64,000 nucleotides of DNA from Candidatus Tayloriibacteriota bacterium (GTDB taxonomy: Bacteria > Patescibacteriota > Minisyncoccia > Phycocordibacterales > CAIRYW01), in assembly GCA_029288615.1 (NCBI GenBank), contig JARIGV010000003.1, positions 1,068 to 65,067 of the forward strand, written 5' to 3'. The notes beneath the pieces are model-generated. The model ran no database searches. It had not been told where the DNA came from and saw nothing but the letters and a program-made list of their open reading frames with translations. Each line of letters opens with the position of its first letter. The first letter of the stretch is position 1. This document shows, piece by piece, positions 30,549 through 58,190 of this stretch. The translations under genes were made by a program, and so were the position numbers.

Positions 30549-31148
30549 ATGAACGCTCTCGTCCTCATCATTCAAAAATACCGATATCTTGCCCTCTTCC
30601 CACTCGCAGCTTTCGAAGGCCCAATTATTTCTTTGGTCGTGGGTTTTCTTATTCATTCTGGATATCTCGCAATTCTTCCTTCATATGCAATGCTCGTTTT
30701 GGGCGATATCATTCCCGATACTATCTATTATTATGTCGGCCGCTTCGGTGAAGAAAAAAATCTTATTTCAAAATACGCATCCAAAGAAGGTTTTATCGCG
30801 AACAACTTTCCACTTGTAGAAAAACTCTGGGAAAAACATGGATTTAAAACAATGTTTCTTTCAAAGATTGCATACGGCCTCTCAACAATTTTCCTCGTAA
30901 GCGCAGGCCTTGTAAAAATGCCGCTTAAAAGATTTCTTACATACACAATCCCGATCACACTTTTTCAATACGGCGTTATCATGACCATTGGATATTACCT
31001 CGGCCAGTCTTACGAAGCAGCTTCAAAATATATTGAGTACACAGGATATTTTGCAGCAGGTATTGTTGTAATCCTTATCGTTGTTTATATAATCCTCTCA
31101 AAATACGCCCGTAAGAAACTCATAGAGGAAGTAAAAGAAGATAAATAG
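30549..31148 (+). CDS. DedA/VTT-family membrane protein
   Basis: N-terminal motif ...FPLAAFEGPIISLVVGFLIHSGYL... matches the DedA family; 199 aa. Confidence 0.6.
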   Translation: MNALVLIIQKYRYLALFPLAAFEGPIISLVVGFLIHSGYLAILPSYAMLVLGDIIPDTIYYYVGRFGEEKNLISKYASKEGFIANNFPLVEKLWEKHGFKTMFLSKIAYGLSTIFLVSAGLVKMPLKRFLTYTIPITLFQYGVIMTIGYYLGQSYEAASKYIEYTGYFAAGIVVILIVVYIILSKYARKKLIEEVKEDK

Positions 31149-31152
31149 CCGC

Positions 31153-32334: not shown

Positions 32335-33043
32335 GATAAGTCTTATCATCTGCGCTTACAACGAAGAGAAATATATTGGAAGCTGTTTGGAGCATGTTCA
32401 AAAAAACGCTCATGATAATTTTTTTGAAATAATCGTTGTTGATAATGCATCAACAGATACAACAAAAGAAATCGCTTCAAGGTTTCATAATGTACGAGTA
32501 GTGGAAGAAATACAAAAGGGTCTTACAAGAGCACGCCAACGTGGTTTTCTTGAAGCAAAAGGAGATGTTTTGGCATATATTGATGCAGATACACAAATGC
32601 CTACTGGCTGGTACGAGAGAGTTTCATATGAATTTAAAGAAAATCCTAAACTTGCTGCTCTTTCAGGCCCTGCACTCTACTACGATATTCCTGCATGGCA
32701 GAGATTCCTTGTTTTGGTTTACTGGTATCTTTTTGGAATGCCTGTCTATTTTGTCGTTGGTTTTATGATCATGGGCTCGAATTTTGCCATTCGAAAAGAT
32801 GTACTACAAAAGATGAATGGTTTTGATACAAAAATTGAATTTTATGGAGAAGATACAAACGTCGCGAGACGTGCGAGCAAATTTGGTAAAGTAAAATTCA
32901 CACCAAAACTTAAAATGTACTTTTCTGGTCGCAGACTTCACAATCAAGGACTCTTAAATACCGGCTACGAATATGTAAAAAATTTCCTCTCCGAAGCATT
33001 TCTTAAAAAACCTGTGACTACACATTATAAAGATTTCAGATAG
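32321..33043 (+). CDS. Glycosyltransferase family 2 (GT-A)
   Basis: ISLIICAYNEEKYI...VVDNASTDTT...AYIDADT (DXD). Overlaps the GT4 gene by 14 nt. Confidence 0.75.
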   Translation: MHEPKISLIICAYNEEKYIGSCLEHVQKNAHDNFFEIIVVDNASTDTTKEIASRFHNVRVVEEIQKGLTRARQRGFLEAKGDVLAYIDADTQMPTGWYERVSYEFKENPKLAALSGPALYYDIPAWQRFLVLVYWYLFGMPVYFVVGFMIMGSNFAIRKDVLQKMNGFDTKIEFYGEDTNVARRASKFGKVKFTPKLKMYFSGRRLHNQGLLNTGYEYVKNFLSEAFLKKPVTTHYKDFR

Positions 33044-33052
33044 AATAATGTT

Positions 33053-33706
33053 ATGAAATCCGCGGCCATTAGATGCAAAGACTGCTTCAGCAATAAGAGA
33101 TTTTTGATCTCGTTTATTTCGGGCATTGTCATGCTTGTTGTAAGCTGCGTCATCAACTATTACGCTGGCACATACGCAGCCGAGAGAGCAAGTAACTACG
33201 TCAACGACATAGTTCTCTCCAATATTCCTGTCTTTGATGTTGATGCGGTTTTTGTATTCGGCCCATTTGTACTGTGGCTTATTGTTGCAGTGCTCTGTCT
33301 TCACGAACCTAAACGCATTCCATTCGTTCTCAAAAGCATCGCACTCTTTGTGGTCATTCGTTCGATCTTTATCACCCTCACTCATATTGGACCATTTCCA
33401 GACCACGACATTCTTGATCGAGGACAAACTCTGGTAAAAGATTTTACATTTGGAGCGGATCTTTTCTTTTCAGCTCACACAGGACTTCCTTACCTTATGG
33501 CTCTTGTATTTTGGGACAACACATTTCTCCGCCGATTTTTCACCATAACCGCAGTCTTCTTTGGTGTCATAGTTCTCATGGGACATCTTCACTACACAAT
33601 TGATGTTCTCTCAGCGTTCTTTATTACATACACAATTTACCACCTCGCGACGATCTTCTTCAAAAAAGACAAAACCCTCTTTGATGAGGGCTTGCCGCTT
33701 CCTTAA
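33053..33706 (+). CDS. PAP2-like (phosphatidic acid phosphatase type 2 superfamily-like) membrane protein (tentative)
   Basis: 5-6 TM; candidate PAP2 C-terminal motifs FSAHTG and GHLHYTIDVLSA. Confidence 0.35.
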   Translation: MKSAAIRCKDCFSNKRFLISFISGIVMLVVSCVINYYAGTYAAERASNYVNDIVLSNIPVFDVDAVFVFGPFVLWLIVAVLCLHEPKRIPFVLKSIALFVVIRSIFITLTHIGPFPDHDILDRGQTLVKDFTFGADLFFSAHTGLPYLMALVFWDNTFLRRFFTITAVFFGVIVLMGHLHYTIDVLSAFFITYTIYHLATIFFKKDKTLFDEGLPLP

Positions 33707-42435: not shown

Positions 42436-43185
42436 TTATTTTGCAAAAGTGAAAATCACCGTTGCAGCTCCATCGGCTTTGCCAGTTGTATAGTCAAAGT
42501 CATGCAGAGATTTCATGAAAGTAAGATAACTGTAGCGATGATCTGCTCCGTCGACACTATCTCCCGGATCGTTCACAATAAATTCTTTTGTTTTTTCATC
42601 ATAGCCACGGATCACCATAACATGATAGGCAGAGCCTGTTGCCAAAAAAGGAATATGAGAATTATGGAGATCAAATCCAGAGTGGAGTGTAATGACAGGA
42701 TGTCCACTTTCAATTTCATTTTTAATATCTAATACAGACGGATTTTTAACAATTTTCTCACCAAAATCTGCATAGTTATCAATTAAAAATGCCATTCGTA
42801 CTGAATCAGAATTTATATTTGATCCATATTTGAGATCTTCTTCATGAAAAAGCATGTTCATGTAATTTTCAGCATCTGTCGTAGTTGCTGTACTTTGTCC
42901 TTTATAAAAACGATCTACCATAAAAATACTTACTTCTTCGCAAGCGTTTTTCCATGGGCCAGACCATACGCCACGCGGCGCCTCACTCATGTAAGGCACC
43001 GCGAGTTCATCGTAGGTCTTTTTAGGAATGACAATAGATTTTGTTGAAGAAGCTAAGGTAACCGAACCGCCAATCAGAGCTTCTGTTTCGCGTGGAAGTG
43101 AAACTGATCTGCTCCAAAAACACATGAGTGCTATAGCTCCCACCGCAGCGAGAGCCACGAGTGCAAACACATTTTCTGTTTTCAT
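42436..43185 (-). CDS. Secreted C39-like (Peptidase_C39_2/YvpB-like) cysteine peptidase-fold protein
   Basis: Signal/TM; candidate catalytic Cys in ...GPWKNACEEVSI... and His in ...YHVMVIRGYD.... Size and order match papain-like C39_2 proteins. Confidence 0.5.
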   Translation of the reverse strand: MKTENVFALVALAAVGAIALMCFWSRSVSLPRETEALIGGSVTLASSTKSIVIPKKTYDELAVPYMSEAPRGVWSGPWKNACEEVSIFMVDRFYKGQSTATTTDAENYMNMLFHEEDLKYGSNINSDSVRMAFLIDNYADFGEKIVKNPSVLDIKNEIESGHPVITLHSGFDLHNSHIPFLATGSAYHVMVIRGYDEKTKEFIVNDPGDSVDGADHRYSYLTFMKSLHDFDYTTGKADGAATVIFTFAK

Positions 43186-43413: not shown

Positions 43414-43623
43414 TTATTTTCTGCTTCGCTTTGATGTGCGACGCGAACTCTTTTTGCGAGGGACTTTACCGCCACTTTTACGGGCCTCTGAAAGGCCAAT
43501 AGCGATGGCTTGCTTGCGGCTTTTTACTTTCTTGCCGCTTTTACCCATGCGAAGCTTCCCTCTCTTAAGCTCATGCATGGCTTTTTTGACTTTTTGTCCG
43601 GCTTTTTTACCGTACTTTGCCAT
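43414..43623 (-). CDS. Small highly basic Lys/Arg-rich protein (conserved hypothetical)
   Basis: MAKYGKKAGQKVKKAMHELKRGKLRMGKSGKKVKSRKQAIAIGLSEARKSGGKVPRK...; 69 aa. Resembles a widespread small basic protein family; function unknown. Confidence 0.4.
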   Translation of the reverse strand: MAKYGKKAGQKVKKAMHELKRGKLRMGKSGKKVKSRKQAIAIGLSEARKSGGKVPRKKSSRRTSKRSRK

Positions 43624-43689: not shown

Positions 43690-45177
43690 TTAATAGCGGA
43701 GTTTATATTCATAGAGAGTGAGCCCTGGCGAAAATTCATCTGAATACAATTTTTGGTAGTGAGTGTCAAAATAAAGCTCTACATCTTTTTGATACCCTTG
43801 GTCATAGCTTAAGAGAAGCCAGAGATTGCTGTGGTTTGCTTCGAGTGTGGCTACATCTTTTACAAGTTCATCTTTTGAATATGCTGGGATCGGACCATTC
43901 GCTTCCTGATTCCAAATAGGAAGCGTTGTAAGTGTTGCTGGCCCACGATAATAATAGAGCATTGGATAAATCGTAAACGGAGCAGAGACGACGATAATAT
44001 CCGAAGCCGATGCATTCCTCTCAAGGAATGTGCTCGCTTCTTCATAATTTTCTTTTACAGGCGTTGATGCTGACACTCCTTCAAAAACAAGCGTTGCTGC
44101 CATGAGAGCGATCAAAATACATTTCACAGCAAGAGAAAGAGTCTTGGGATATGTTGAGAAAAGCCAACCCAAGAAAAGATACATCGATGGAATCGTAAAT
44201 ATAAGATAGCGAGTCAAATAAATCGGCGACAGTGTGAGACTTACAATGAAAGCAATGACGTTTGGAAGAAGAAAGACAATGAGAAAGTAAAGCGTCTCTG
44301 GCGCCATTCCTTTGCCTTTTCGAAGAGCAAGAAATCCCAAAAAAACAGTAAGAGGCCACAAAGACACCAATATGGTATTGAGGTGGTCTGTTTGGAATCC
44401 AAACAAGAATTGAGAGAAGGTGTTAAAAAGATCTACAGTTGAAGGTGCAGTGAGCGCCGGTTCAGAACTTGAAATGCCTCCAAGATATATGACAAAAAGT
44501 GCCCAGGGCAAAAAACAGACAATCAGAAAAATTCCGATCTTGAAGAATTTCTTGAAAGCATCTTTTGGGAAAATTTCCTTATGGAAGAAATAGAAAATCA
44601 TGTCGCAGAGTACGAGAAGGAAAAAGAAATAATGCGTATACATACCACATACCGAAACTAGAGCAAACCAAAACCAATCCATGAAATCTCCCCTCTTCCA
44701 TATTTTTACGAAGAAATATTCATGAAGAATTGCCACAAGCACAAACATGCTGTACATACGGATCTCATTTCCGTACCAATTCATAAATGGCGACAGTGTT
44801 AGGAGCGCCGCAACAAAAATTCCAGTTTTTCTTCCATAGCAAATAGCACCTAAAGAATAAATTGCAGGAATTGATAATAAGAAGAAAACAAGTGAAAGAA
44901 GCCTATCGACGGCAACATCATTTCCAAGAAATATTTGCCACGTATGGAGAATAAGATGATAGAGCGGCACGTGCACATCTTTACCTACAAGAGAAAGCAT
45001 CCCCATAACTGTACGCGATGTCTGCCAAATACTTTGTGATTCATCGAGGCGGAGACTTTGCTCTCTGAAGAATACGATCGAGAGAAGCGCCGCAAATAGC
45101 ATAAGCATTAAAATGATCGGAAAATCTGTCGATATCCACGAAGGCGCAGCTTCTGTTTTTTTAACTTCGTTTTCCAT
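43690..45177 (-). CDS. GT-C fold glycosyltransferase, family 39 / PMT_2-like (polyprenyl-phosphate-sugar-dependent mannosyl/arabinosyl-transferase)
   Basis: 495 aa, about 11 N-terminal TM helices with a C-terminal extracytoplasmic domain. Early loop ...LRLDESQSIWQT..., like the ArnT/PMT DE-motif region. Confidence 0.6.
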   Translation of the reverse strand: MENEVKKTEAAPSWISTDFPIILMLMLFAALLSIVFFREQSLRLDESQSIWQTSRTVMGMLSLVGKDVHVPLYHLILHTWQIFLGNDVAVDRLLSLVFFLLSIPAIYSLGAICYGRKTGIFVAALLTLSPFMNWYGNEIRMYSMFVLVAILHEYFFVKIWKRGDFMDWFWFALVSVCGMYTHYFFFLLVLCDMIFYFFHKEIFPKDAFKKFFKIGIFLIVCFLPWALFVIYLGGISSSEPALTAPSTVDLFNTFSQFLFGFQTDHLNTILVSLWPLTVFLGFLALRKGKGMAPETLYFLIVFLLPNVIAFIVSLTLSPIYLTRYLIFTIPSMYLFLGWLFSTYPKTLSLAVKCILIALMAATLVFEGVSASTPVKENYEEASTFLERNASASDIIVVSAPFTIYPMLYYYRGPATLTTLPIWNQEANGPIPAYSKDELVKDVATLEANHSNLWLLLSYDQGYQKDVELYFDTHYQKLYSDEFSPGLTLYEYKLRY

Positions 45178-45186
45178 GGATTTTAT

Positions 45187-46740
45187 TTAGACTGAAACAG
45201 AAACAGATTTATCAACTGTTCTCGCTACATGTTTTGAATGCGATTTTGCTCCCGATGGAAGAGCGGCATAAATTGACGGAACGAATACTCCGACCATAAG
45301 AGCTGCCCAAGCGATGTTTGCAATAAATGATGCAGAAAATCCTTCACGCATAAGTGCAATAGGAATACCACCAAGAACAAGAACAATATAAGCAATATGC
45401 GGAATAACAAGTGAGACAAAATTTCCCTCCACCTGCTTCTTTGGTGTCACTTGGAATGAAGATTTTTCGCGAGTGATCGCAGCCCAAATAGCTTTGATAT
45501 GGATCGTGAATGCACCCATTGAAAATGTAAGAGCGCGGAATGTGAATGAAAAATTACTTGAAAGCTGAATCATGTAGAGTGTAAGGAAGATATAGGGAAG
45601 GAATATAGCGGCAAGGAACATTGTTGAAACAGTAAACGCGATCATTCCGGTGTAAAGGAAGATAACTGGAATAAGCGCATTCATCACAACCACAAGTCCT
45701 GAGAAATAGAAGCTGATCGAAGAGAAATACTGAAATTTCTGTGCAAGAGAAAGATGGCGTCGACTAAGAAAACCGAAAGCGAGTGCATCAAAACCTCCCC
45801 TTGCCCATCGGAATTGTTGTTTTGAATACGAGAGAAAATCTTCTGGCGCCAAACCTTCAGCGAGGACTTCTGGCACATAGACAGACGTAAGACCTTTTTC
45901 GTGAAGCAAAAGACCAGTAAGAAAGTCTTCAGCAATACTATCTTCCGACATTCCACCTACAGAACAAAGCATGTCACGACGAAGTACCATGTTTGTACCA
46001 CACATAGTCACACCATTGAATCTATTTCGACCACGACAGATCGGGCCAAAGAAAAGTTCCTGCTGTTCCCACGCACTTCGTGTAATATAGTTTTTCGCAA
46101 AATTTCTATAGAACTGCGGAGTCTGTACGAAAGCAACTTTAGGATCAAAAAAGTATGTAGCAGTTTTTGAAAGAAAATCTGCGTGTGGAATATGATCAGC
46201 ATCGAAAATTGCAACGAGTCCATTTCCTTCGCCCCATCCTGTTTCTCGAAGTGCATTATTTATATTTCCCGCTTTCGCACCTCCTGGTGTTTTTCGAGTA
46301 ATACAAAATACACCGAGTTTTTCTGCCACGTCTTCTGCCTCTTTCCAATTCTCCTTCTTCGCAACATATCCATCATTGAGAATATATACAGAAAAATCAG
46401 GATAGGTCATATTCTTTACAGCTCGTGTTGTCTCTTCAACAATATCCGCTTCTTCTCCTGCTACAGTAATGAAAACATCCACATGTGGCGTAAATGATGG
46501 ATCTCTTTTATGAAGATAGCTTGTATCCCATGTTGTGAAAATGAAAGAGAGCACTTGATACACATGAAAAATTTCACCAGCAATAAGAAGAGCGAAGAGA
46601 AGACTGACTCCCACAGGAAAAGTGAAAGCGATCACATAGAAATACACGACCGATAAAATAGCTGTTACCGTGAAAAGTCCTCTATGGCTTCTTGTTTGCA
46701 AAAATGCTGTTTTTGCTTTTTCGAATGAATTATTTTTCAT
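45187..46740 (-). CDS. Processive family-2 glycosyltransferase, cellulose-synthase-like (BcsA/CesA-like catalytic core, no PilZ domain)
   Basis: D, DxD (FDADH), TED-like and QQFRWARG (QxxRW) motifs flanked by TM helices; 517 aa. Confidence 0.75.
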   Translation of the reverse strand: MKNNSFEKAKTAFLQTRSHRGLFTVTAILSVVYFYVIAFTFPVGVSLLFALLIAGEIFHVYQVLSFIFTTWDTSYLHKRDPSFTPHVDVFITVAGEEADIVEETTRAVKNMTYPDFSVYILNDGYVAKKENWKEAEDVAEKLGVFCITRKTPGGAKAGNINNALRETGWGEGNGLVAIFDADHIPHADFLSKTATYFFDPKVAFVQTPQFYRNFAKNYITRSAWEQQELFFGPICRGRNRFNGVTMCGTNMVLRRDMLCSVGGMSEDSIAEDFLTGLLLHEKGLTSVYVPEVLAEGLAPEDFLSYSKQQFRWARGGFDALAFGFLSRRHLSLAQKFQYFSSISFYFSGLVVVMNALIPVIFLYTGMIAFTVSTMFLAAIFLPYIFLTLYMIQLSSNFSFTFRALTFSMGAFTIHIKAIWAAITREKSSFQVTPKKQVEGNFVSLVIPHIAYIVLVLGGIPIALMREGFSASFIANIAWAALMVGVFVPSIYAALPSGAKSHSKHVARTVDKSVSVSV

Positions 46741-47938
46741 AGCTTATTCCCGAGGAAAGATTCGGAAGGAGATTGTCGTAAAGGGCAATTCCAAACCACG
46801 CCCAGTTTGCATCGTAATAACTAAGTGGCGTTTTCCAATTTTCCGTATCTTGGTCGAATAAAATTTTAAGTTTCTGATTATAAACATCGTCTGCATCTGC
46901 AGTGTCTGAAACGGCAAAATAACCTATAGCGCCGCCATACATCGCAGGTACTTCTGAAGACGCAACAATAGAGCCATCATGACCATATACAGAGGCGAGC
47001 ATCTTACTGTTTTGCCACTGTGATGAAAGAAATCCAAGCTTATCGAGGTATTGTTTTGCTTCAGGAGCCTTAAACCATTCATAATCAAGTGCAACTCTCC
47101 ATGGCACACGAAGTGCATCGAAACTAAAGTTTGTCGTGAGATTTGAAATTCCTGTTGCAGAAATTGCAGCTTTTGTTTTATCTATTTCTATCCAATCTGG
47201 TGGAAGACCAGAGGAACTTCCTTTATCAAGTTGTGAAGACGCAGAATTATTGAGAAGTGCATACGAAGTATCGACAAGAGAAACCCAATCATGGCTGCGA
47301 TCTATATTTGCAAAGATGCGATATGCATATGGTTCAAAATATGAAGGGTTGATGATGGGTTTTGAGGAAGAAAATTTCTCAAGATTGTTTGCAGTGAGAT
47401 ATGGCTTTCCTGCTATTACCACTACTTCCTTATCCCAAATATCACCCATGATCGCCTTTGCTTCAGTGAGATATTTTGTGTCATTCCATCTGTCGTATGC
47501 GAAAACAAGTGCGAGCGCAATATCAGTATCAGCATCAGTTGCTGCATTCTGTCCTCCCCTATCTGTAAGAATTCCATATGAGCCGTCTGTTTTTTCTCCA
47601 AAAAGCCACGCAAATAGATTGTCGTCCTTGTGCTTCAAATTATTATTCGTCCACTGCAATCCTTTATCGAAAGTTCCTTTATCATCCATCCACACTGCAC
47701 GCAAAAGCAAATAACCCTGTCCCTCGGATGTTGTAATGTTGTTCTGACTCTTATCGATCGCGCGTCCATCGGGATTTATATAATCGCTCTTATAATGAGA
47801 CCAGAGCGATGTGACCATATCTTTATCAGAAAAGACAAGTGAAGTGTGACCGAAAACGCCATTGAAATAAAGAATTGCAATACACAGGATAACGGCAAGT
47901 ACAATCAACGCATACCCGATGACATAGTTTTTTTCCAT
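46730..47938 (-). CDS. Glycoside hydrolase family 8 endoglucanase (BcsZ-like)
   Basis: GH8 signature ATDADTDIALALVFAY plus ...TSEGQGYLLL...; N-terminal TM/signal. Confidence 0.7.
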   Translation of the reverse strand: MEKNYVIGYALIVLAVILCIAILYFNGVFGHTSLVFSDKDMVTSLWSHYKSDYINPDGRAIDKSQNNITTSEGQGYLLLRAVWMDDKGTFDKGLQWTNNNLKHKDDNLFAWLFGEKTDGSYGILTDRGGQNAATDADTDIALALVFAYDRWNDTKYLTEAKAIMGDIWDKEVVVIAGKPYLTANNLEKFSSSKPIINPSYFEPYAYRIFANIDRSHDWVSLVDTSYALLNNSASSQLDKGSSSGLPPDWIEIDKTKAAISATGISNLTTNFSFDALRVPWRVALDYEWFKAPEAKQYLDKLGFLSSQWQNSKMLASVYGHDGSIVASSEVPAMYGGAIGYFAVSDTADADDVYNQKLKILFDQDTENWKTPLSYYDANWAWFGIALYDNLLPNLSSGISYEK

Positions 47939-47963
47939 GAAATTTTAAGTTAAACAATTGAAA

Positions 47964-48668
47964 TTAATGACCAAGCGACATCTTTCGTGATGAGAAGCGT
48001 GATGAATTTCCCATAATGCTTCTCGGAAGCGCTGTCGCTTTCTCGATCGCCCTCTTACCTTCTTTGCCTGCAATCAAAAGCACACCAAGAAGGCCAAGCG
48101 CGAGCGCAGTGACACCCAATGAAAATGTCATTGGCACACCAAGGCGAGCTTTTTCATATGGTGAAATTGCAGATGCAGTCGAAGCATCACCTGCCGCAGA
48201 TTTTTCATTGCGGAGACCGACTGATGGAGTCCTCGGATTTTTTGGTTTATTTTGAATAGTTGAATAGACTGATCCTGCCGTTGGTATAACTGCCGTAGTA
48301 GTAGCAGTTGTTGTTGCATTTACAGTCGCTTTTGTTGAAGTTGAAGTAGTGATCGGAGTTGTTGTTGCATGATTTGGATTTCCGAAAATAAAAAGTGATG
48401 GGAAAATAAAACTTCGAGTTGTACTTGCACCATTGTCAGGACCAGAAGAAGTATCTGCAGGTGTAGTAGTAGACGAAGCATGTGGCACCAACGAGTTCTC
48501 AGCAGGAGTTGTTCTATTTATTCTATTTGTATTTCGGTCACCATGAGATTGATTCCGTGCCGCAGATGCAACACCTGCAAAAGTAAACATATATATGAAA
48601 GCCATCATGCACGCGAACATGATGCCTATTTTTTTATTTTTCATAAATGTGTTTTGTTTCATGTACAA
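47964..48668 (-). CDS. Secreted Thr-rich protein with C-terminal membrane anchor (hypothetical)
   Basis: Signal peptide, T/S/N-rich low-complexity core, C-terminal hydrophobic helix plus basic tail. Confidence 0.4.
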   Translation of the reverse strand: MYMKQNTFMKNKKIGIMFACMMAFIYMFTFAGVASAARNQSHGDRNTNRINRTTPAENSLVPHASSTTTPADTSSGPDNGASTTRSFIFPSLFIFGNPNHATTTPITTSTSTKATVNATTTATTTAVIPTAGSVYSTIQNKPKNPRTPSVGLRNEKSAAGDASTASAISPYEKARLGVPMTFSLGVTALALGLLGVLLIAGKEGKRAIEKATALPRSIMGNSSRFSSRKMSLGH

Positions 48669-48756
48669 AGAGACGGAGCGCTATAGTGATTATGACAGTA
48701 AGCTCATGTTTGAAATGGCTGTCACGATAGCCATCATTTGTCGTCTACCTTTTTGT

Positions 48757-49227
48757 ATGGAAGAGATTATGCCATTACAAAAAAATACAAAGGATATGAG
48801 AAGAGTTGTGCGATTTATCCTTGTTGGTGTGCTCAACACTGCTATCGATTTTGCCGTACTTAATATTCTTATCTCGGCATTCGGTCTCGGCGGAAATAAC
48901 CATTTCCTTTATATTGTTTTCCGCTCGATCTCCTTCTCAGTCGCTGTGGTTAATAGTTTCTTCTGGAATAAAAGATGGGTATTTAAAAGAAATCGTCGTG
49001 TTCTTCATCAGTACGGTGAGCACACACAGTTTGAGCTTGGAAGTTTCCTTGGTGTAAGTGTTGTAGGCCTTGTGATTAATTCCCTCCTCGCACTTTTCTT
49101 TTTCTCAGTTATGTCACCTGTGCTCCCAACATTCTACGCTGCAAATATCGGCGCGCTCATTGGTACATGTGGTGCCCTCGCTTGGAATTTCATTGGTTAT
49201 AAGAAATTCGTATTCAAAGTAGCCTAA
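48757..49227 (+). CDS. GtrA-family polysaccharide-synthesis membrane protein
   Basis: Start trimmed to an internal ATG (48757; alternatives 48769 / 48796). ...RFILVGVLNTAIDFAVLNIL... and ...AWNFIGYKKFVFK are GtrA hallmarks. Confidence 0.55.
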   Translation: MEEIMPLQKNTKDMRRVVRFILVGVLNTAIDFAVLNILISAFGLGGNNHFLYIVFRSISFSVAVVNSFFWNKRWVFKRNRRVLHQYGEHTQFELGSFLGVSVVGLVINSLLALFFFSVMSPVLPTFYAANIGALIGTCGALAWNFIGYKKFVFKVA

Positions 49228-49241
49228 ATAAATTAAATAAA

Positions 49242-49958
49242 ATGCTTGTATCAATTATTATCCCCGCATATAACGAAGAAAAAAGAATAGGAAAAACCCT
49301 TTCTGCGATTTATTCGTATCTTGCAAAACAAAAATATCAAAGTGAGATCATCGTTGTTGATAACGGCTCAGAAGATAGAACAGCAGAAATCGTCGAGATT
49401 TATAAAAGCAATATTCCAAACCTCAGTCTTATTAAAGAAGCAAGTTATGGAAAAGGCTGGGCAGTAAAACAAGGAATGCTTGCTGCTAAGGGAGATTTTC
49501 GTCTCTTTACTGATGCTGATAATTCCACTGATATTAGCGAACTTGCAAAACTCCTTCGCTTTGCGCAAAACGGTTACGATGTTGTCGTAAGTTCACGTCT
49601 TGCGAAAGGCGCAATTGTCATCCACCCTCAACCAGGTTGGAGAAAGACTCTTGGAAAAGTGTTCGCATGGATTGTGCATCTTCTTGTACCAGTAAAAGTA
49701 AAGGACACCCAAAACGGCTTCAAAATTTTCTCACGTGAAGCTGCGGAAAAAATATTTTCTCATCAGACAATTTTCTATTGGGCATTCGATGTAGAGATTA
49801 TTGCGCTCGCTGAGAAATTTAAATTTAAAGTAAAAGAAGTACCAATCCGTTGGGTCAACGATGACAGAAGCCATATGAGCATGACTGGTATGGTCCGTAT
49901 GCTCTTTGAAGTAACACTTGTGCGACTTCATCTAATGACGAGAGACTACGCATCCTAA
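49242..49958 (+). CDS. Family-2 glycosyltransferase, polyprenyl-phosphate sugar (DPM1/GtrB/Ppm1-like) synthase
   Basis: IIIPAYNEEKRI...IVVDNGSEDRT...TDADNS (DAD)...; 238 aa, size and motifs of dolichyl/polyprenyl-phosphate mannose/glucose synthases. Confidence 0.75.
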   Translation: MLVSIIIPAYNEEKRIGKTLSAIYSYLAKQKYQSEIIVVDNGSEDRTAEIVEIYKSNIPNLSLIKEASYGKGWAVKQGMLAAKGDFRLFTDADNSTDISELAKLLRFAQNGYDVVVSSRLAKGAIVIHPQPGWRKTLGKVFAWIVHLLVPVKVKDTQNGFKIFSREAAEKIFSHQTIFYWAFDVEIIALAEKFKFKVKEVPIRWVNDDRSHMSMTGMVRMLFEVTLVRLHLMTRDYAS

Positions 49959-51884: not shown

Positions 51885-52640
51885 TTATAAATGCGCAAAG
51901 TCATACCCTTCTGTGGATAAAATAGGGATGAGCTTTGTTAAAGCCTCTTCAGTTTTTGGAGCATTTGGTCCCCCAAGATGCATGATCACGATATTATCTC
52001 CCGGCTTTATTTTTCCAAGTACCATAGCAACAATTTTCTTTGCATCCATCTGATGTGGATCCTCTGAAATAATCCCATCATCACTTTCTTTGTAGCCAAG
52101 TTTTTTTATAAGCTCGCTGTCGCTTTTATTTCTGCAAAGCCCCGGCAGTCGTACATACGTCGGAGCATTTCCTGTAAGATCAGTAATTATTTCTGTCGCC
52201 TTTTTTATTTCTTCTGTCTTTGCTTTCTCCTGCGTAACGACTGAAAGACCATAGCACCCAACTGTAAATGCCGCATGATCATATGTGTGATTTTGTATTG
52301 AAAAAAGCCCACTCATTGCGGCCGCACGAATCACTCCTGGATACATTTCTGCAAACATTCCTGTCGTGAAAATTGTTGCTGGCACTTCCCTTTCTTCAAG
52401 ATATGAAATAATTCCCGGGCTATACCAAAGCCCAACCTTTCCTTTTTCCGCCTCATCTTTCATGTGAGGAGTCATGTCCGCATCAAAAGTAAGATAGACT
52501 GTACCGATCTTTTGCTTCAAGGGTGATGGAATATTTTGCGCCACAACAGCAGAGGCTTCACAAAAAAACGAAAGAAAAATAAAAACAATAAAGAAATTAA
52601 AATATTTTTTACAGCACCGATCTATTTCTTTCATCCCCAT
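51885..52640 (-). CDS. Polysaccharide deacetylase (NodB-homology, CE4) family protein
   Basis: TFDAD (motif 1, Asp-Asp) and ...QNHTYDHAAF (His-His zinc motif); N-terminal TM. Confidence 0.7.
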   Translation of the reverse strand: MGMKEIDRCCKKYFNFFIVFIFLSFFCEASAVVAQNIPSPLKQKIGTVYLTFDADMTPHMKDEAEKGKVGLWYSPGIISYLEEREVPATIFTTGMFAEMYPGVIRAAAMSGLFSIQNHTYDHAAFTVGCYGLSVVTQEKAKTEEIKKATEIITDLTGNAPTYVRLPGLCRNKSDSELIKKLGYKESDDGIISEDPHQMDAKKIVAMVLGKIKPGDNIVIMHLGGPNAPKTEEALTKLIPILSTEGYDFAHL

Positions 52641-53167
52641 ATAAACACAGCAAGCGCAAGTGCTGTAACAAGAATCTCTGCAATTCCAGAAATACTTTTA
52701 AAATGATTTTTAATAACTCCACTCCAGCGCGATATTCGTGGCACATCTTTCTTCGCCCATTCAAATGGAAAAGTAAAAAATTTATCCGACAAAGGCCAGA
52801 ACCATTTGGCCCCAAAGACAAATGAATCACAAAGTAGATGGCTCCACGGTGAGAGCCATACCAAAAGTCCCAAAGCTTTTACAAAATCACTTGCAAAAAT
52901 ATCTCCGCAGAAAAAGACAACGCAGCCAAAAAGAAACCAAAAGATCGCGGTGTGTGTAATATAGCCGCGGTGCCCATCGGTGACTGCAGGAGTCAAAGTT
53001 TTCTTTTTGAGGAAACTTAAGAAAATATCAAAATCTGGACCATCACCTAAAAGGGTACCGATCGTATAGATTGCAATATTTTCATTTCCAGAAAATTGAA
53101 AACCAGCAACATGAAGCACAGCATATGTTGTCAGATATCCAGCAGCTAAATGTCCCGGTAAGATCAT
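52631..53167 (-). CDS. Membrane-bound metal-dependent hydrolase family (YdjM/DUF457-like) protein
   Basis: N-terminal MILPGHLAAGYL and GDGPDFD motifs typical of this family; 4-5 TM. Confidence 0.5.
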   Translation of the reverse strand: MILPGHLAAGYLTTYAVLHVAGFQFSGNENIAIYTIGTLLGDGPDFDIFLSFLKKKTLTPAVTDGHRGYITHTAIFWFLFGCVVFFCGDIFASDFVKALGLLVWLSPWSHLLCDSFVFGAKWFWPLSDKFFTFPFEWAKKDVPRISRWSGVIKNHFKSISGIAEILVTALALAVFIWG

Positions 53168-54261
53168 TCTCTTATTCTACGGCGCAAAAGCACATACAAC
53201 AAGGTAACGATCGCAGCGCATACTAGAAAGATTTTTGTATTTATATTATTACTTTGACTCTGTGTTTCAGGCATTACCTCGGCAGAAGCTTTGCCAATTT
53301 TCATGATCGCAAATCGTGTTAAGTGAGATACTGAAAATGTCACAGTATTTCCATCTATTTTAATGTTCGGTACTTCACTCCATGTATTTTTTGTCGTATC
53401 AAACCAAAATACACCGATCTTCTCGCCAACAAGAGACTCCGGCACAGTCAGTGTAATCGTAAGCGGTTTGCTAAATGTATGAATCTCCTTTCCTGATGGA
53501 TCTTTTGCAACAATATCAAAGAAAACTTTTCCAAGGGTTTCTATGATCACATCGAAAGTGGCATTTACAATGTGTGTTGTGACTGTAATTTTTTGAGGAT
53601 AAGCGCCGGCAGGTACATACACTTTCGCGTGTGAAAGTCCTGACAAATTAGACGAATCATTTGGAAAAACTTTCTTTGGATCATTCTTGTTAGTCACTAT
53701 GTGATTGACGACAGGATAAATAGATGGAAAAAAATTGCTATCACTATGTATGACGCCAGCACTTCCAATTCGTGCCGCTATTGAAGAGGTTCCACTATTT
53801 TGTGTATTTGAAACAGCGTTGCGCACATCACAGAGATTACAATCAAAATTTACTCTACCCACAGCATCTCCTTCATTTCCTGCTATACCACTCCATTTTC
53901 CATCTGTTCCAATTGTCACTCCACTCATAGAAAGCCAACCGAGATTTGGAACCCATGCAGAACCACTGAGATGTCCATTCGCATCAATAGAAACTCCCTG
54001 CCCAGAATTCGTCGGACTGAAATTGATCCAACCATACTCTTTGCTCCACGCATATCCTGTTACAGAAGCGTCTGTTACAACAACGCCTTGATACTCACCA
54101 TTATTTTCCGGGGCAAAATTGATCCATCCCATATTTTCTCCCCATGCATATGAATGCGAAGCATCAACAGTTTGTGATGAAGCAAAGACAGAAGTGGAAC
54201 AAAGAAAAAAAAGTGAGACAAGAATGATGAGTGCGTTATTTTTTCTCACATTTCGAGCCAT
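53164..54261 (-). CDS. Secreted repeat protein (G.AW....GWI.F aromatic repeats, possibly glycan/cell-wall binding) with C-terminal TM anchor
   Basis: Signal peptide; three or more repeats YAWGENMGWINFAPEN / YAWSKEYGWINFSPTN / SAWVPNLGWLSMSG; C-terminal hydrophobic helix + RRRIRE. Confidence 0.45.
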   Translation of the reverse strand: MARNVRKNNALIILVSLFFLCSTSVFASSQTVDASHSYAWGENMGWINFAPENNGEYQGVVVTDASVTGYAWSKEYGWINFSPTNSGQGVSIDANGHLSGSAWVPNLGWLSMSGVTIGTDGKWSGIAGNEGDAVGRVNFDCNLCDVRNAVSNTQNSGTSSIAARIGSAGVIHSDSNFFPSIYPVVNHIVTNKNDPKKVFPNDSSNLSGLSHAKVYVPAGAYPQKITVTTHIVNATFDVIIETLGKVFFDIVAKDPSGKEIHTFSKPLTITLTVPESLVGEKIGVFWFDTTKNTWSEVPNIKIDGNTVTFSVSHLTRFAIMKIGKASAEVMPETQSQSNNINTKIFLVCAAIVTLLYVLLRRRIRE

Positions 54262-54263
54262 AA

Positions 54264-57200
54264 CTATTCTGTAGTCGCTTGATTATCTGGAGTATTTGAA
54301 ACTTGCTCACTCTGTGAATCATCTTGTACTGGGGTTTGAGAAGAATCAGGTGTTGATGTTGCTACAACCTCGGGAGTTGAGGTACTCAAAGTATCTGGCG
54401 AAACACTCATGATATCTGGAGTCGACGTTGATTCCTCAGTAGATGATGTCGCATCTTTAAAAGAAGAAGGTGCTATGTTTTGTTTCGAAAGAAGCTCCTG
54501 AAGTTCTTTTTCAGTGACACATGTGTCACCCACACACAATTTACTTGTATCCACTTCATGAGCAAAAATTTTGTCGAAAATTCCCTCCGCCAATGTATTC
54601 ACCTTCGCATAAAGCTCTTTCACCGCTTCAATGATTACAGCGGTAAGATGTGTGTAATCAAGAGTGTAGTAACCATTTGGTGCCAAATGTACCAAATCTG
54701 GGAATTGCTTTGCCACATCTTGTGCAATAAGACCATAATTTTTAGTTTGTCCGTTCATCATCGGATACATAGAAAGATACGTGCTATTCCAATTGAATGT
54801 CACTGCATCAAGCGCTGTGAGTTTATCGAGAGTCGATGTCGTATCTGATGCGACTGCAAGATTTGTAATATTTGTTTTAAGTCTCATATCTGAGAAAGAG
54901 CTCATACATCCATTTGAAAACTGTGAACAAATATCACCTGATGCAAAAATATCTCCGCCGACATCAAGCTTGTGAGTTGGCGACAAAACGCCAACTCCAA
55001 GATTTCCCGATGTTGTAAGGACCAATTGCGAACCAGTCGCATCATCTGCCCCTCCCCACATACCACTGACCGACAGCGCACTACTTGCTTTTGTAATGAA
55101 AACATTTCCAGAAGGACCATTGTTATCATTCACCAAAGGAAAATAACGAGTCGGAATGTCTTCGCCACTATCCATATGAACACTTAGATTGCCAAGATTG
55201 TGGTTAATAATAATGGCATTATTGAAATTACTTGCGGTACCAATAATAGTGACGGGATCAATTTCAACAGCGTAATGACCACTCGCCACACTATTATCAC
55301 TATCAAATTCAAACACTGTTGATCGACTACCATCACTTACTGTCACTGTGTCGCCGTCAGCGGGCTGAGTATTAATTTTTATTGATCCTCGTGCGGGTGC
55401 AGCCACACTTGTTACAGAATTCGGCATACCAGCATTGAAAGTAAGATTGCCATTAGAATTTCCAATTGCTCCATTTACATCGAGAGCATACGCAGGTGTT
55501 GCAGTACCAATACCAATATTTTCTCCTCCGGTGTATGTCACATATGTTCCATCATCTGTAAAAGGCGAAGTGCTTGCTGCTTTGCCATCAGAAAAGAGCG
55601 AGCCGTTATGATAAATATTTCCCGTGAAATTAATGTCTCCGCTCACATCAAGATTAAATCCAGGCGCAACATTATTCACACCAACAAATCCATTCGATAC
55701 CGTAAGCGGATGTACGACACCATCACTTGGCAGTGCCATGTGATCTGCAGGAATTATTTGGAGTGATTGGTTATTGCTCTCCCATGAAAGATGCAAACAC
55801 TCTCCCGTCGCATCAGAACCTACATAATGCTCGATCTTTATTGCAGTCCATTTATTTTTTACAAGATTTACCGTCGCGGTGTGTGCTGTACATGTCGCCT
55901 GGTCATTCCAGTCGTCGATCACCAAATTTCCATCAATCCACAAACGCACTCCATCGTCGGCGCTCAAATGAATCGTATACGTTTCGCTATAGTCTGCTTT
56001 GATAAATCCAGAGATATTTCCAGCGTAATTATTTTCTACACCTTGTGGAGCATAATCATCGACGTCGACTGGACCAAATTGCGTTGAAAGGATCATGCCG
56101 CCGATTTCAGGATTTGATCCTCCATACCAAAATGAATAGAGTCCGCCGACGTTACCGACAAATGATGTATTTGTTACTCCAAAAGTTCCATACACATCGA
56201 GTTTATGTAGTGGTGTTGTTGTACCGATACCGACATTTCCATTTCCTTTAAATGTCACATTTGGTGTGAAAGTACTTGAATCTCCGCCATAGCCAAATTG
56301 CATATCAGAACTCGAAGTGTCTGTGTACATCTGGAGCAAATAATTTTGGATTCCAAAACCATATGCTGCACCTGGAGCACCATCATACAAAGCAATCTTG
56401 TTACCGAGTGCGCTACCAAGAGAAAGTTTTGCGTTGGGGCTATTCGTACCAATACCAACATTCTCATTGCCGTTGTAATACACATTACTGTTATCATCCG
56501 TAAATGGTGATGATCCGCCGCCAGTAAAAGCCACACCATTTTGATAAAGGTTTCCTGAAAAATTCACATCACCATCAACATTGAGAGCATATGAACCCGC
56601 ATTCGTGCCAATACCAACTCCAGTACCAAAAAATCCCGTTCCATGCACCTGCAAATCCTCGCCATTTCCTGTACCCGTATTGTTGTCACCACCCCAAGCA
56701 TTTCCAACAAGAACATTTCCGTTTGTTGTCACCATAAATGGGAAACTTTCATCTCCACCGCCACCTGTGTGTCCTGGTGTATCGTACACAACAGACATCA
56801 CAGGTTTACCGTCTCGCGCATCAAACCGAAGAATGGAACCACCGAGACTTGTATCGCGATCTCCAAACTGTGCGAAGTTGAGTCCAAGATTGAGAGTCTG
56901 TCTATTTGATTCATCGTTCAAACCATCTCCGATAAATCCTCCGCGCAAATTTCCAATCGTACTTGGAGTTATATAAAAAGCATTTGCTTGTGTTATTCCG
57001 TTTACATCAAGTGACTCTGTCGGATTATTCGTGCCAATACCGACATAGTTACCTCCGTTGTAATAAACTTCTGTACCATCATCGATGAACGGCGAAGAAC
57101 TCGCGCCGAGTCCTGCATACAGCTCACCATTTTTATAAAGATTTCCTGTGAAATTAATGTCGCCGTTGACATCAAGATTGAAAAAAGGATGATCAGTACC

Positions 57201-58190
57201 AATACCGACATTTCCAAATGGAGTAAGTCTCATGATTTCTCTCAAACCAAAATCTCCCCACTCTCCCTGATTTGTACTGAACGCTAGCCCTGCTCCGCCA
57301 GGAGCGTATGCTACAGATTGAATACTTGCAGCCGGGTCAGCAAAAAAGGGCACATTCGTATCACGGAAAGCAATATTTGAACCTTCGTTGTCAGATCCAA
57401 AATTACTTTGAAGTGTAAGCAGTGTATTCTGGCCGCTAGATGTTGTTGCAATATCTAGCATCGATAATGGATTCGTCGTACCGATGCCGACAAATCCATT
57501 ATTCACGATATTCATCACAGGATTTCCATTTGTCGCAAAGACAATTTGTCCTTCGCCATTGAGATCACTGTCTGCTGCAAAAGAAAGATCGTCAGGAGTT
57601 GTGATACCCGTTGTTGTCGATGCAGATGTACCCATGAAAGTACCGTCCGGAAAATAAAGACCGTTGCCAAGTCCAGAAATTTTTAGATTACCGTTTACAT
57701 CAAGTGTGGCAGTTGGATTTGTCGTGCCAATACCAACACTTCCATTTGTATATGTCAGCACTCCTTCACCTTGATCTGTCCACTGACTTCCAGAAAAAGG
57801 AGTTCCGTTTTGGTAGAGAGTTCCTGTGAAATTGATATCGCCGTTTACATCAAGATTGTAGTTTGGCGCATTATTTCCAATACCCACAAACCCGTCGTTG
57901 TAATAAATACTTCCCTCGTTGTTTGACCATTGTGAAGAAATTGGCAGTGTTACTGTACAGTTATCTTCCGTCGGCGCACATTCTGGGTTTAGAGTTTCAC
58001 CAGGATTATACGGACTATTATTCCATGCTGCGGAAGCCCGAAAAGGCGTAAAAAGTATAAAAAATAAAAGTGAGAATATGAGTACTAAATGCTCTTTTTT
58101 GGGCATGTATCGAGTGCGAGAAAGTTTTTTCAAAAAACACCGAAGACACTTCTTCGGCCGGTCATCATGGGTTTTCTTTCGCAAGCTCAA
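54264..58190 (-). CDS. Giant (1308-aa) secreted surface protein: tail-fibre-like G(N)VGIGT/DVNGDINFTGxLYxNG repeats, PA14 domain, C-terminal peptidase-S74 intramolecular-chaperone domain, S/T/P-rich tail
   Basis: Signal/TM at the N-terminus; eight or more copies of the short repeat pair. PA14-like block ...GFIKADYSETYTIHLSADDGVRLWIDGNLVIDDW... (about nt 55700-55975). S74-like block SFSDMRLKTNITNL...LDAVTFNW...GLIAQDVAKQFPDLV...LDYTHLTAVIIEAVKEL (about nt 54545-54880). Acidic S/T/P-rich C-terminus. Confidence 0.7.
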   Translation of the reverse strand: MSLRKKTHDDRPKKCLRCFLKKLSRTRYMPKKEHLVLIFSLLFFILFTPFRASAAWNNSPYNPGETLNPECAPTEDNCTVTLPISSQWSNNEGSIYYNDGFVGIGNNAPNYNLDVNGDINFTGTLYQNGTPFSGSQWTDQGEGVLTYTNGSVGIGTTNPTATLDVNGNLKISGLGNGLYFPDGTFMGTSASTTTGITTPDDLSFAADSDLNGEGQIVFATNGNPVMNIVNNGFVGIGTTNPLSMLDIATTSSGQNTLLTLQSNFGSDNEGSNIAFRDTNVPFFADPAASIQSVAYAPGGAGLAFSTNQGEWGDFGLREIMRLTPFGNVGIGTDHPFFNLDVNGDINFTGNLYKNGELYAGLGASSSPFIDDGTEVYYNGGNYVGIGTNNPTESLDVNGITQANAFYITPSTIGNLRGGFIGDGLNDESNRQTLNLGLNFAQFGDRDTSLGGSILRFDARDGKPVMSVVYDTPGHTGGGGDESFPFMVTTNGNVLVGNAWGGDNNTGTGNGEDLQVHGTGFFGTGVGIGTNAGSYALNVDGDVNFSGNLYQNGVAFTGGGSSPFTDDNSNVYYNGNENVGIGTNSPNAKLSLGSALGNKIALYDGAPGAAYGFGIQNYLLQMYTDTSSSDMQFGYGGDSSTFTPNVTFKGNGNVGIGTTTPLHKLDVYGTFGVTNTSFVGNVGGLYSFWYGGSNPEIGGMILSTQFGPVDVDDYAPQGVENNYAGNISGFIKADYSETYTIHLSADDGVRLWIDGNLVIDDWNDQATCTAHTATVNLVKNKWTAIKIEHYVGSDATGECLHLSWESNNQSLQIIPADHMALPSDGVVHPLTVSNGFVGVNNVAPGFNLDVSGDINFTGNIYHNGSLFSDGKAASTSPFTDDGTYVTYTGGENIGIGTATPAYALDVNGAIGNSNGNLTFNAGMPNSVTSVAAPARGSIKINTQPADGDTVTVSDGSRSTVFEFDSDNSVASGHYAVEIDPVTIIGTASNFNNAIIINHNLGNLSVHMDSGEDIPTRYFPLVNDNNGPSGNVFITKASSALSVSGMWGGADDATGSQLVLTTSGNLGVGVLSPTHKLDVGGDIFASGDICSQFSNGCMSSFSDMRLKTNITNLAVASDTTSTLDKLTALDAVTFNWNSTYLSMYPMMNGQTKNYGLIAQDVAKQFPDLVHLAPNGYYTLDYTHLTAVIIEAVKELYAKVNTLAEGIFDKIFAHEVDTSKLCVGDTCVTEKELQELLSKQNIAPSSFKDATSSTEESTSTPDIMSVSPDTLSTSTPEVVATSTPDSSQTPVQDDSQSEQVSNTPDNQATTE

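Follow-up and report, generated by a model that had tools for sequence, protein, structure and literature searches.

The question raised by this locus is whether a group of glycosyltransferase and hydrolase genes that lie next to one another belong to one biochemical system or to two. The genes are found between positions 43690 and 49958 of a 64-kb stretch of DNA from a Candidatus Tayloriibacteriota bacterium (contig JARIGV010000003.1), the whole of which is referred to here as the window. They encode a cellulose-synthase-like glycosyltransferase of family GT2, a glycoside hydrolase of family GH8, a membrane glycosyltransferase of the GT-C type, a GtrA-family protein and a DPM1-like GT2. The window has a G+C content of approximately 40%, and the closest homologues of its proteins belong to Patescibacteria of the Paceibacteria/Parcubacteria type. 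An earlier note on this DNA, made from the sequence alone, had described two separate systems side by side, i.e. a minimal cellulose synthase with its hydrolase and a protein mannosylation set. Comparison with related loci revealed that the GT-C enzyme is the obligate and most constant partner of the synthase. We put at roughly even the chance that the products form one envelope machine, a synthase complex making beta-glucan independently of cyclic di-GMP (c-di-GMP), in which the GT-C enzyme would decorate or possibly anchor the chain and the hydrolases of families GH8 and GH6 would trim it.

All six open reading frames (ORFs) between 43690 and 49958 are present at their coordinates, and the gene identities and families assigned in the earlier note held in Pfam, NCBIfam and fold comparisons. 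The minus strand carries a compact four-gene operon in the order anchor, GH8, GT2 and GT-C (Table 1). Its first gene, for a small anchor protein, had not been listed previously and belongs to the operon with the other three. The GT-C gene had been placed upstream of the GT2 gene and is instead transcriptionally downstream of it, while the reported 11-nt overlap of the GT2 and GH8 genes was seen as described. The GtrA and DPM1-like genes form a pair that is divergent from the operon across a gap of about 95 bp, and an alternative start for the GtrA ORF lies at 48769.

To place the locus among its relatives, one genome per species was scanned, which yielded at least 560 relatives of the synthase; the best 80 loci were kept for all locus counts given below, and synteny positions were taken from tblastn searches with the window proteins. 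The GH8, GT2 and GT-C genes were adjacent and co-directional in 74 of the 80 loci. All six exceptions end at a contig edge, so the trio is present in 74 of 74 informative loci. These loci cover the Paceibacteria, Saccharimonadia, Doudna-, Gracili-, Levyi- and Blackburnbacteria, and seven genomes among them are actinobacterial (Geodermatophilus, Klenkia, Quadrisphaera and one with the label Streptomyces sp. NP160). Two gene orders were observed, GH8-GT2-GT-C in 65 loci and GH8-GT-C-GT2 in nine, and the linkage has thus outlived rearrangement. Across classes, the core proteins share 44-61% (synthase) and 26-54% (GT-C) identity with the window copies. Pairwise distances were correlated most closely between GT2 and GT-C (r = 0.83), followed by GT-C and GH8 (0.74) and by GT2 and GH8 (0.68). 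Some loci of the type found in the Candidate Phyla Radiation (CPR) carry the labels Gammaproteobacteria, Verrucomicrobiia, Acidobacteriaceae or Chloroflexi (L021, L026, L041, L064, L065, L068, L069 and L074, with one contig of 773 kb); these are probably mis-binned or mislabelled and were not used to claim a wider distribution.

Gene fusions point in the same direction. A GT-C profile was compared with 1.84 billion cluster representatives, giving 3063 proteins at E<=1e-30, of which the best 150 were inspected. Among these 150 were four GT2-GT-C fusions of approximately 1000 aa (P0363, which was the top match, P0383, P0387 and P0491), each the representative of a separate 50%-identity cluster; the window GT2 and P0363 share 58% identity across 490 residues. 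In another protein, P0396, the GT-C enzyme is fused to a GH6 hydrolase. All of the fusions are topologically coherent, with the C-terminus of the synthase and the N-terminus of the GT-C enzyme in the cytoplasm and the C-terminal domain of the GT-C enzyme and GH6 outside. Synteny, co-variation and fusions together indicate that the GT-C enzyme is a core partner of the synthase rather than a member of an unrelated mannosylation set. The coupling of the two is well supported, and the description of two separate systems is not sustained by the conserved trio, the distance correlation or the four GT2-GT-C fusions.

The same evidence bears on the explanation that a minimal cellulose synthase with its GH8 enzyme and a Pmt/GtrA/Ppm1 set for protein O-mannosylation are neighbours by chance. 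That explanation would suit the transcription of the GtrA and DPM-like genes divergently from the operon as well as the annotation of some orthologues as 'mannosyltransferase' by JGI, and a GT-C enzyme with a polyprenyl-phosphate-sugar synthase makes up a self-sufficient known scheme. However, a GT-C gene stands beside the synthase gene in every one of the 74 informative loci from several classes of Patescibacteria and from the Actinomycetota, the two are fused in four lineages and GT-C is fused to GH6 in one, and the enzyme has only the PMT_2 domain, with neither the PF02366 core nor a MIR domain. A chance association is therefore scarcely credible.

The synthase was compared with known enzymes by profile, sequence and fold. 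Its Pfam matches are Glyco_tranf_2_3 (8e-26) and Cellulose_synt (1.7e-10), and its top NCBIfam match is CelA TIGR03030 (7.9e-76), with 255.6 bits vs. a cut-off of 699. The CelA match covers only profile positions 86-576 of 714, and the PilZ end is thus missing. The closest solved structure by sequence is BcsA (4hg6/5ej1; 7e-53), aligned over BcsA residues 70-530, and since the alignment begins at about residue 70, two N-terminal helices of BcsA are absent. An AlphaFold 2 (AF2) model (pLDDT 83) gave BcsA as the best Foldseek match (TMq 0.76-0.78, with 9b8v_E and 4p00_A at 0.77-0.78; E 1e-26 to 1e-23), followed by plant CesA and then by hyaluronan synthases (HAS). Profile, solved-structure and fold comparison all give BcsA/CelA, in agreement with the earlier assignment to a processive family.

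All of the catalytic residues of the synthase, for which the earlier note had suggested a check, are present, namely D123 within LNDG, D180-x-D182, E271-D272 and Q308xxR311W312 within QQFRW (308-312). Further motifs are QTPQ (206-209), MCGT (246-249) and FQVTPK (429-434), a gating loop of the FxVTxK type. The D, DxD and QxxRW elements of the motif set first reported are therefore correct; the reported 'TED' is actually A270-E271-D272. I269, A270, E271 and D272 are unvarying across the 26 orthologues compared, in which the catalytic and gating motifs are likewise invariant. With its catalytic motifs, channel fold and gating loop, the protein is a processive membrane GT2 of the BcsA type; it lies outside the canonical BcsA equivalog (TIGR03030 / PRK11498), since it has no PilZ domain and scores under the curated cut-off.

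The lack of a PilZ domain extends to the relatives of the synthase. Besides the profile match that stops at 576 of 714 and the BcsA alignment that stops at about 530, none of the 120 best GT2 homologues has a PilZ Pfam domain, and these proteins are 462-599 aa long, most of them 490-546. No GGDEF, EAL or PilZ motif was recovered by a pattern search of all window ORFs of 80 aa or more, which is a crude test of the 64-kb window only. In BcsA the PilZ domain keeps the gating loop closed. With the FxVTxK loop present and the PilZ domain absent, the synthase should run without c-di-GMP. The reported lack of a BcsB-like partner also holds for the conserved module, as no BcsB-like cluster was found among the genes recurring in the 80 loci and no BcsB Pfam match in the scanned subset of window proteins.

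The identity of the polymer was approached through the hydrolases. The GH8 gene adjoins the synthase gene in 77 of the 80 loci, and the remaining three are cut by contig ends. The NCBIfam BcsZ match of the GH8 enzyme (1e-42) scores 146 vs. a cut-off of 299, making it a member of GH8 and not a BcsZ equivalog. Residues 133-151, ATDADTDIALALVFAYDRW, fit the GH8 signature pattern, which we take to be PROSITE PS00812. Glu72 in TSEGQ and Asp274 in FDALRV, presumably the catalytic acid and base, align with the matching residues of the solved BcsZ-like glucanase 7f81, and a transmembrane (TM) helix lies near the N-terminus at 5-23. The Pfam match, the signature and the two aligned residues bear out the earlier assignment to a BcsZ-like GH8. 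Of the 80 loci, 29 carry a GH6 gene (Pfam 3e-64), mostly convergent and right after the GT-C gene. The closest relatives with independent gene calls show GH6, then DPM and GtrA, and then a small protein, GH8, GT2 and PMT_2 as successive groups. Neither GH6 nor GH113 was found in the window by tblastn. A GH8 enzyme nearest to BcsZ-type glucanases, together with the GH6 gene of these 29 loci, suggests a beta-1,4-glucan as the product.

A common domain of approximately 70 aa, so far unannotated, was observed in a CPR GH6 (L002:14387-15826), where it is N-terminal, and in a GH113 (L007:4235-6106), where it is C-terminal. Its pattern is WWP..G....G.QP.KA......YxxYWQVDG....M.....DYPHKE, and it may be a new carbohydrate-binding module.

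The GT-C enzyme matched PMT_2 (PF13231, 7e-9) alone in Pfam, with no match to the PMT core (PF02366), PMT_4TMC or MIR domains, and its profile found nothing at E<=1 among PDB sequences. In the absence of a relative in the PDB by sequence, a fold comparison was needed. The AF2 model (pLDDT 85) has a GT-C fold, for which the best superposition was ArnT (TMq 0.63), followed by STT3/PglB, ALG9/12, Pmt4, DPY19 and AftB. Foldseek E-values of these matches range from 1e-7 to 1e-3, with Pmt4 in the middle ranks only, and the best named NCBIfam relatives are all far under their cut-offs. Protein O-mannosylation of the actinobacterial type, named in the earlier note as one possible function of the set, is not supported for an enzyme with PMT_2 only, no PMT/GT39 core and no sequence-level PDB relative. 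Across 38-60 orthologues (26-60% identity), L44-D45-E46 in the first outer loop is invariant, as are H69, R140 and R323, which stand within the conserved H69-x-P71, R140-M141-Y142 and R323-Y324. The outer C-terminal domain is rich in aromatic residues (SAPFTIYPxxYYYxG from 398, W422 and DQGY at 459-462). The multi-TM fold and the acidic motif of the first extracytoplasmic loop place the protein in the GT-C superfamily, and it is probably catalytic because this fold is combined with the invariant D45-E46 in that loop.

These residues are of consequence for the suggestion that the GT-C protein is a non-catalytic scaffold in place of BcsB, with the DPM-like enzyme and GtrA serving other pathways. 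Such a role would fit a module without a BcsB-like gene, and a precedent exists in Streptomyces, where CslA activity needs the non-homologous, TM-anchored GlxA (bioRxiv 10.1101/2023.11.20.567928). Moreover, roughly half of the loci lack a DPM-like gene within 10 kb. The invariance of D45-E46, H69, R140 and R323 over 38-60 orthologues is nevertheless a pattern typical of active GT-C enzymes, and a purely structural role is improbable.

The DPM-like GT2, presumed to supply the donor sugar, carries the motifs DNGS from residue 40 and DADN from 91. Its NCBIfam relatives (PgfS, dolichyl-P-hexose transferase, PpgS and ArnC) are far under their cut-offs. In 38 of the 80 loci, including all seven actinobacterial ones, its gene lies no more than 10 kb from that of the synthase. 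In many relatives (e.g. L002) the sugar synthase ends in a fused GtrA_DPMS_TM domain, while in the window this domain has a gene of its own. The set of polyprenyl-phosphate-sugar synthase, GtrA protein and GT-C recognised in the earlier note stands, each member having a Pfam match, and judged by gene content the three would constitute a three-component set of the Gtr type.

The first gene of the operon encodes a protein with a signal peptide, a Ser/Thr/Pro-rich stretch (31% S+T+P), a Tyr motif next to the membrane (SPYEKARLGVP, starting at residue 167) and, near the C-terminus, a Gly-containing TM helix at about 180-198, followed by a basic tail. In at least 26 loci a protein of 70-254 aa that did not cluster by BLAST lies just before GH8. 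These proteins have a common gapless pattern of 36 aa, i.e. an invariant Tyr followed some six positions on by a hydrophobic residue, and then a TM helix with Gly at fixed spacing, usually with a basic tail after it. As the training set had been chosen by eye, the motif and TM helix were built into a hidden Markov model (HMM) and tested on all loci, comprising 15,241 stop-to-stop ORFs from 81 sources, with E<0.01 counted as a hit. Only four matches came from outside the training set, three of them ending 44-98 nt ahead of GH8 and the fourth immediately following GT-C. The window protein scored 8e-7, but was itself in the training set. The anchor gene is also predicted by independent gene callers in L081 and L082, in each case with the motif.

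A second HMM round placed the motif of L052 in one stop-to-stop frame with the GH8 N-terminus, and those of L036 and L038 at the end of a long form of the DPM-like enzyme; the L042 DPM-like protein has the same domain layout as these two and no anchor HMM score. When the L036 long form was used as a database query, long forms made up 89 of the 120 best clusters. The anchor HMM matched 20 of these 89 at E<0.01 vs. none of 27 short forms. Fusions of the DPM-like enzyme and the anchor are frequent and were found in the Saccharimonadales. In at least five lineages (L003, L010, L011, L013 and L072) the anchor is only 45-90 aa long and consists of the Tyr motif, TM helix and tail. From these short versions, which have no Ser/Thr-rich region, the membrane anchor is the conserved part and the Ser/Thr/Pro stretch is optional.

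The short anchors help to weigh a third explanation, in which the complex is real and the GT-C enzyme O-glycosylates protein, either the Ser/Thr/Pro-rich anchor or other surface proteins, in the manner of actinobacterial Pmt or the Pgf system of Streptococcus mutans. The outer part of the anchor has an extended stretch rich in Thr, Ser and Pro in the window and in most relatives, PgfS is the best NCBIfam match of the DPM-like enzyme (2e-19, far under the cut-off), and PMT-type enzymes are among the structural matches of the GT-C enzyme. Yet the Ser/Thr-rich region is lacking from the anchors of at least five lineages, and fusion of GT-C to the synthase or to GH6 is left unexplained. We regard protein glycosylation as unlikely, though deserving of consideration.

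In five of the nine loci with the order GH8-GT-C-GT2 (L004, L012, L020, L022 and L055), where the HMM detected no Tyr-motif anchor, a multi-TM protein of about 200 aa without a Pfam match (cluster c10) recurs, directly after GT2 in four of the five. A PAP2 phosphatase (c12) occurs in L004, L012, L020 and L055. The c10 and c12 proteins may be lineage-specific substitutes.

For the machine proposed here, we infer the polymer, the donor sugar, the acceptor of the GT-C enzyme and the role of the anchor as follows. The BcsA-type GT2 would use a UDP-sugar to polymerise a beta-linked (most probably beta-1,4) glucan and extrude it through its own channel, and, having a gating loop and no PilZ domain, would not need c-di-GMP. 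The GT-C enzyme would dock on the synthase, to which it is covalently joined in some lineages. The DPM-like GT2 would charge a polyprenyl-phosphate carrier, with GtrA helping in the flipping, and on the outer face the GT-C enzyme would move the carrier-borne sugar onto the emerging chain, giving a side-decorated glucan. Decoration of this kind would be analogous to that of cellulose with phosphoethanolamine (pEtN) by BcsG, or of other polymers by enzymes of the GtrC, GacL and YfhO type. Trimming or release of the chain would fall to the membrane-anchored GH8, joined in many relatives by a secreted GH6. The Tyr-motif TM protein would be a membrane subunit and may act in the way of BcsB or of the GlxA TM anchor.

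The components could also be arranged in another manner, with the DPM-like enzyme making a polyprenyl-phosphate-glucose primer, the synthase elongating it and the GT-C enzyme ligating the chain to an acceptor in the wall, a lipid or a protein. This scheme employs every component, a cell-anchored polymer would fit the surface of an episymbiont, and the top Foldseek E-values of the GT-C model belong to oligosaccharyltransferases (STT3, PglB and AglB). Some synthases, such as the pneumococcal type 3 synthase, begin on a lipid acceptor, but enzymes of the BcsA type are not known to require a lipid primer (PMC8892547). The best superposition, ArnT (TMq 0.63), is furthermore a monosaccharide transferase, and a lipid-primed chain appears quite unlikely.

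Several observations weigh against the decorated-glucan machine. All NCBIfam matches lie far under the equivalog cut-offs, so function cannot be transferred directly. Only about half of the loci have the DPM-like gene in the vicinity, and the anchor family is detectable in approximately 34 of 80. A Ser/Thr/Pro-rich region beside a PMT-like enzyme could itself be an acceptor. The fusions are metagenomic gene calls, for which sequencing errors are possible in principle; an artefact is unlikely given four divergent cases. As for the glucan, chitosan, xylan and lichenan are further substrates of families GH8 and GH6, and a gene of GH113, a family with mannan hydrolases, is present in six loci. That the polymer might be other than glucan is a separate uncertainty, independent of the remainder of the proposal.

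Comparison with known systems places the module between pathways that have been described individually. Similar to Bcs operons I-III, the window encodes a processive GT2 of BcsA fold (TMq 0.76-0.78) with D, DxD, xED, QxxRW and FxVTxK motifs, and a BcsZ-like GH8 gene that overlaps the synthase gene. Unlike them, the window module has neither PilZ nor BcsB, has AED in place of TED and scores 255.6 vs. 699 bits, and its constant partner is a GT-C enzyme with a small TM protein. The CslA-GlxA-CslZ system of Streptomyces also has a Gram-positive-type cellulose-like synthase that needs a TM-anchored partner other than BcsB, but CslA has a partial PilZ domain and responds to c-di-GMP (bioRxiv 10.1101/2023.11.20.567928). 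CslZ is a GH6 next to the synthase (PMC9040799), which resembles the adjacent GH6 found in 29 of the 80 related loci, though not in the window. The partner in the present module is a GT-C enzyme and GH8 is always present. Neither the neighbourhood in the window nor the clusters recurring across the 80 loci yielded a gene for a GlxA radical copper oxidase.

BcsG of E. coli docks on BcsA and modifies nascent cellulose on the outer face from a lipid donor (PMC8892547). Synthase:pEtN-transferase complexes (9fmv and 9fmz) were among the sequence and fold matches of the GT2. The proposed arrangement is alike in that a polytopic membrane enzyme would sit on the synthase and use a lipid-borne donor for modification at the outer face. 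It differs in that BcsG has an alkaline-phosphatase fold and takes pEtN from phosphatidylethanolamine, whereas here the fold is GT-C and a sugar from polyprenyl phosphate would be expected.

Three-component extracytoplasmic glycosylation is represented by GtrA/GtrB/GtrC, CsbB/GtcA/YfhO, GacI/J/K/L and PpgS/Rv3779. As in the present locus, these comprise a GT2 polyprenyl-phosphate-sugar synthase, a GtrA-family protein and a GT-C enzyme, and their acceptors are O-antigen, teichoic acid, rhamnan and arabinogalactan made by other pathways. To our knowledge, no three-component system welded to a BcsA-type synthase is known. O-mannosylation by Ppm1/Pmt likewise pairs a polyprenyl-phosphate-sugar synthase with a GT-C enzyme having a DE motif in loop 1, but the GT-C enzyme here has PMT_2 only and is always linked to a glucan synthase. 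The module thus joins the synthase-dependent glucan pathway with three-component glycosylation of the Gtr type. A full-text literature search on cellulose synthases in Patescibacteria/CPR and actinobacteria yielded no description of the module, nor did reviews and surveys of bcs operons; a systematic bcs survey required BcsB and would therefore have missed it.

The envelopes of CPR/Patescibacteria are poorly understood, and the cells live attached to hosts. With a conserved core in at least 560 species-level genomes, the module is a strong candidate for producing a key surface polymer. More tentatively, and with the odds against it, the product could be an unrecognised major envelope polymer of Patescibacteria and some actinobacteria, a nascent beta-glucan glycosylated by a GT-C enzyme welded to a c-di-GMP-independent synthase. 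The module would show a BcsA-type synthase working without PilZ and without BcsB, and would join two routes that are usually treated separately, synthase-dependent production of a polymer and a GT-C step that draws on a lipid carrier. If true, glycosylation of the nascent chain would be a third natural modification of cellulose, after acetylation and phosphoethanolamine, and the polymer would be a candidate surface glycan for attachment of episymbiont to host.

The actinobacterial copies (L054, L056-L059, L061 and L063) are closest to those of Saccharimonadales L042, with identities of 65-67% (GT2), 47-50% (GT-C) and 57-59% (GH8). High G+C gives spurious ORFs at these loci, which makes naive ORF clustering unreliable, and tblastn positions were used for this reason. 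In neighbour-joining trees of GT2 and GT-C, the actinobacterial copies are sister to L042, L038 and L028, and the corresponding GH8 tree did not resolve. The G+C content of the module is approximately 4-5 points under that of the actinobacterial flanks in L054, L056, L061 and L063. These comparisons suggest transfer of the module en bloc between an episymbiont lineage and the Actinomycetota, in one or the other direction, and hint at gene exchange between episymbionts and a phylum known to be parasitised by them. The culturable Geodermatophilus and Klenkia carry the module and would offer a tractable model. The actinobacterial loci also contain an extra GT4 between the DPM-like gene and GH8, confirmed by Pfam in L054 and recovered as cluster c18 in four of the seven.

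Table 1. Genes of the module in the window, with strand and principal characteristics.
Feature	Coordinates	Strand	Characteristics
Small anchor protein	47964..48662	-	232 aa from ATG; first operon gene, 25 nt before GH8
GH8 endoglucanase, BcsZ-like, membrane-anchored	46730..47938	-	402 aa; Pfam GH8 1.6e-53
PilZ-less BcsA-type processive GT2	45187..46740	-	517 aa; 2+4 TM helices; overlaps GH8 by 11 nt
GT-C fold glycosyltransferase	43690..45177	-	495 aa; PMT_2 7e-9; starts 9 nt after GT2
GtrA-family small membrane protein	48757..49227	+	156 aa from ATG at 48757; GtrA_DPMS_TM 3e-18
DPM1/GtrB-like GT2, soluble-type, presumed polyprenyl-P-sugar synthase	49242..49958	+	238 aa; PF00535 5e-28

Immediately 3' of the GT-C stop is a short, highly basic ORF at 43480..43622 (-) (MAKYGKKAGQKVKKAMHELKRGKLRMGKSGKKVKSRKQAIAIGLSEAR...), which its small size had kept off the ORF list. 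The module is flanked by a Peptidase_C39_2-like protein at 42436..43185 (-) (7e-13) and by a polysaccharide deacetylase at 51885..52640 (-) (2e-20). The C39-like peptidase and the NDK and DUF5666 neighbours were considered as parts of the module and rejected, as none recurs in related loci; the C39-like gene, being absent from these, is probably unrelated to it. Scans of the 64-kb window for tRNA and Rfam families found nothing, and a promoter and terminator scan of the window gave background level only and was not used.

Elsewhere in the window, 54264..58190 (-) encodes a secreted protein of 1308 aa with a PA14 carbohydrate-binding domain (3.5e-15) and, at its C-terminus, a Peptidase_S74 intramolecular-chaperone domain (2.8e-11) of the kind seen in phage tail spikes. 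For a CPR genome, this product has the look of an adhesin resembling a tail fibre. Downstream of it, 53164..54261 (-) encodes 365 aa without a Pfam match. A second lipid-linked glycan cluster at 30549..33706 (+) consists of a VTT/DedA-family protein, a GT4, a 240-aa GT2 and a PAP2_C protein. DedA proteins are tied to polyprenyl-phosphate recycling, and this cluster may therefore supply the same carrier pool.

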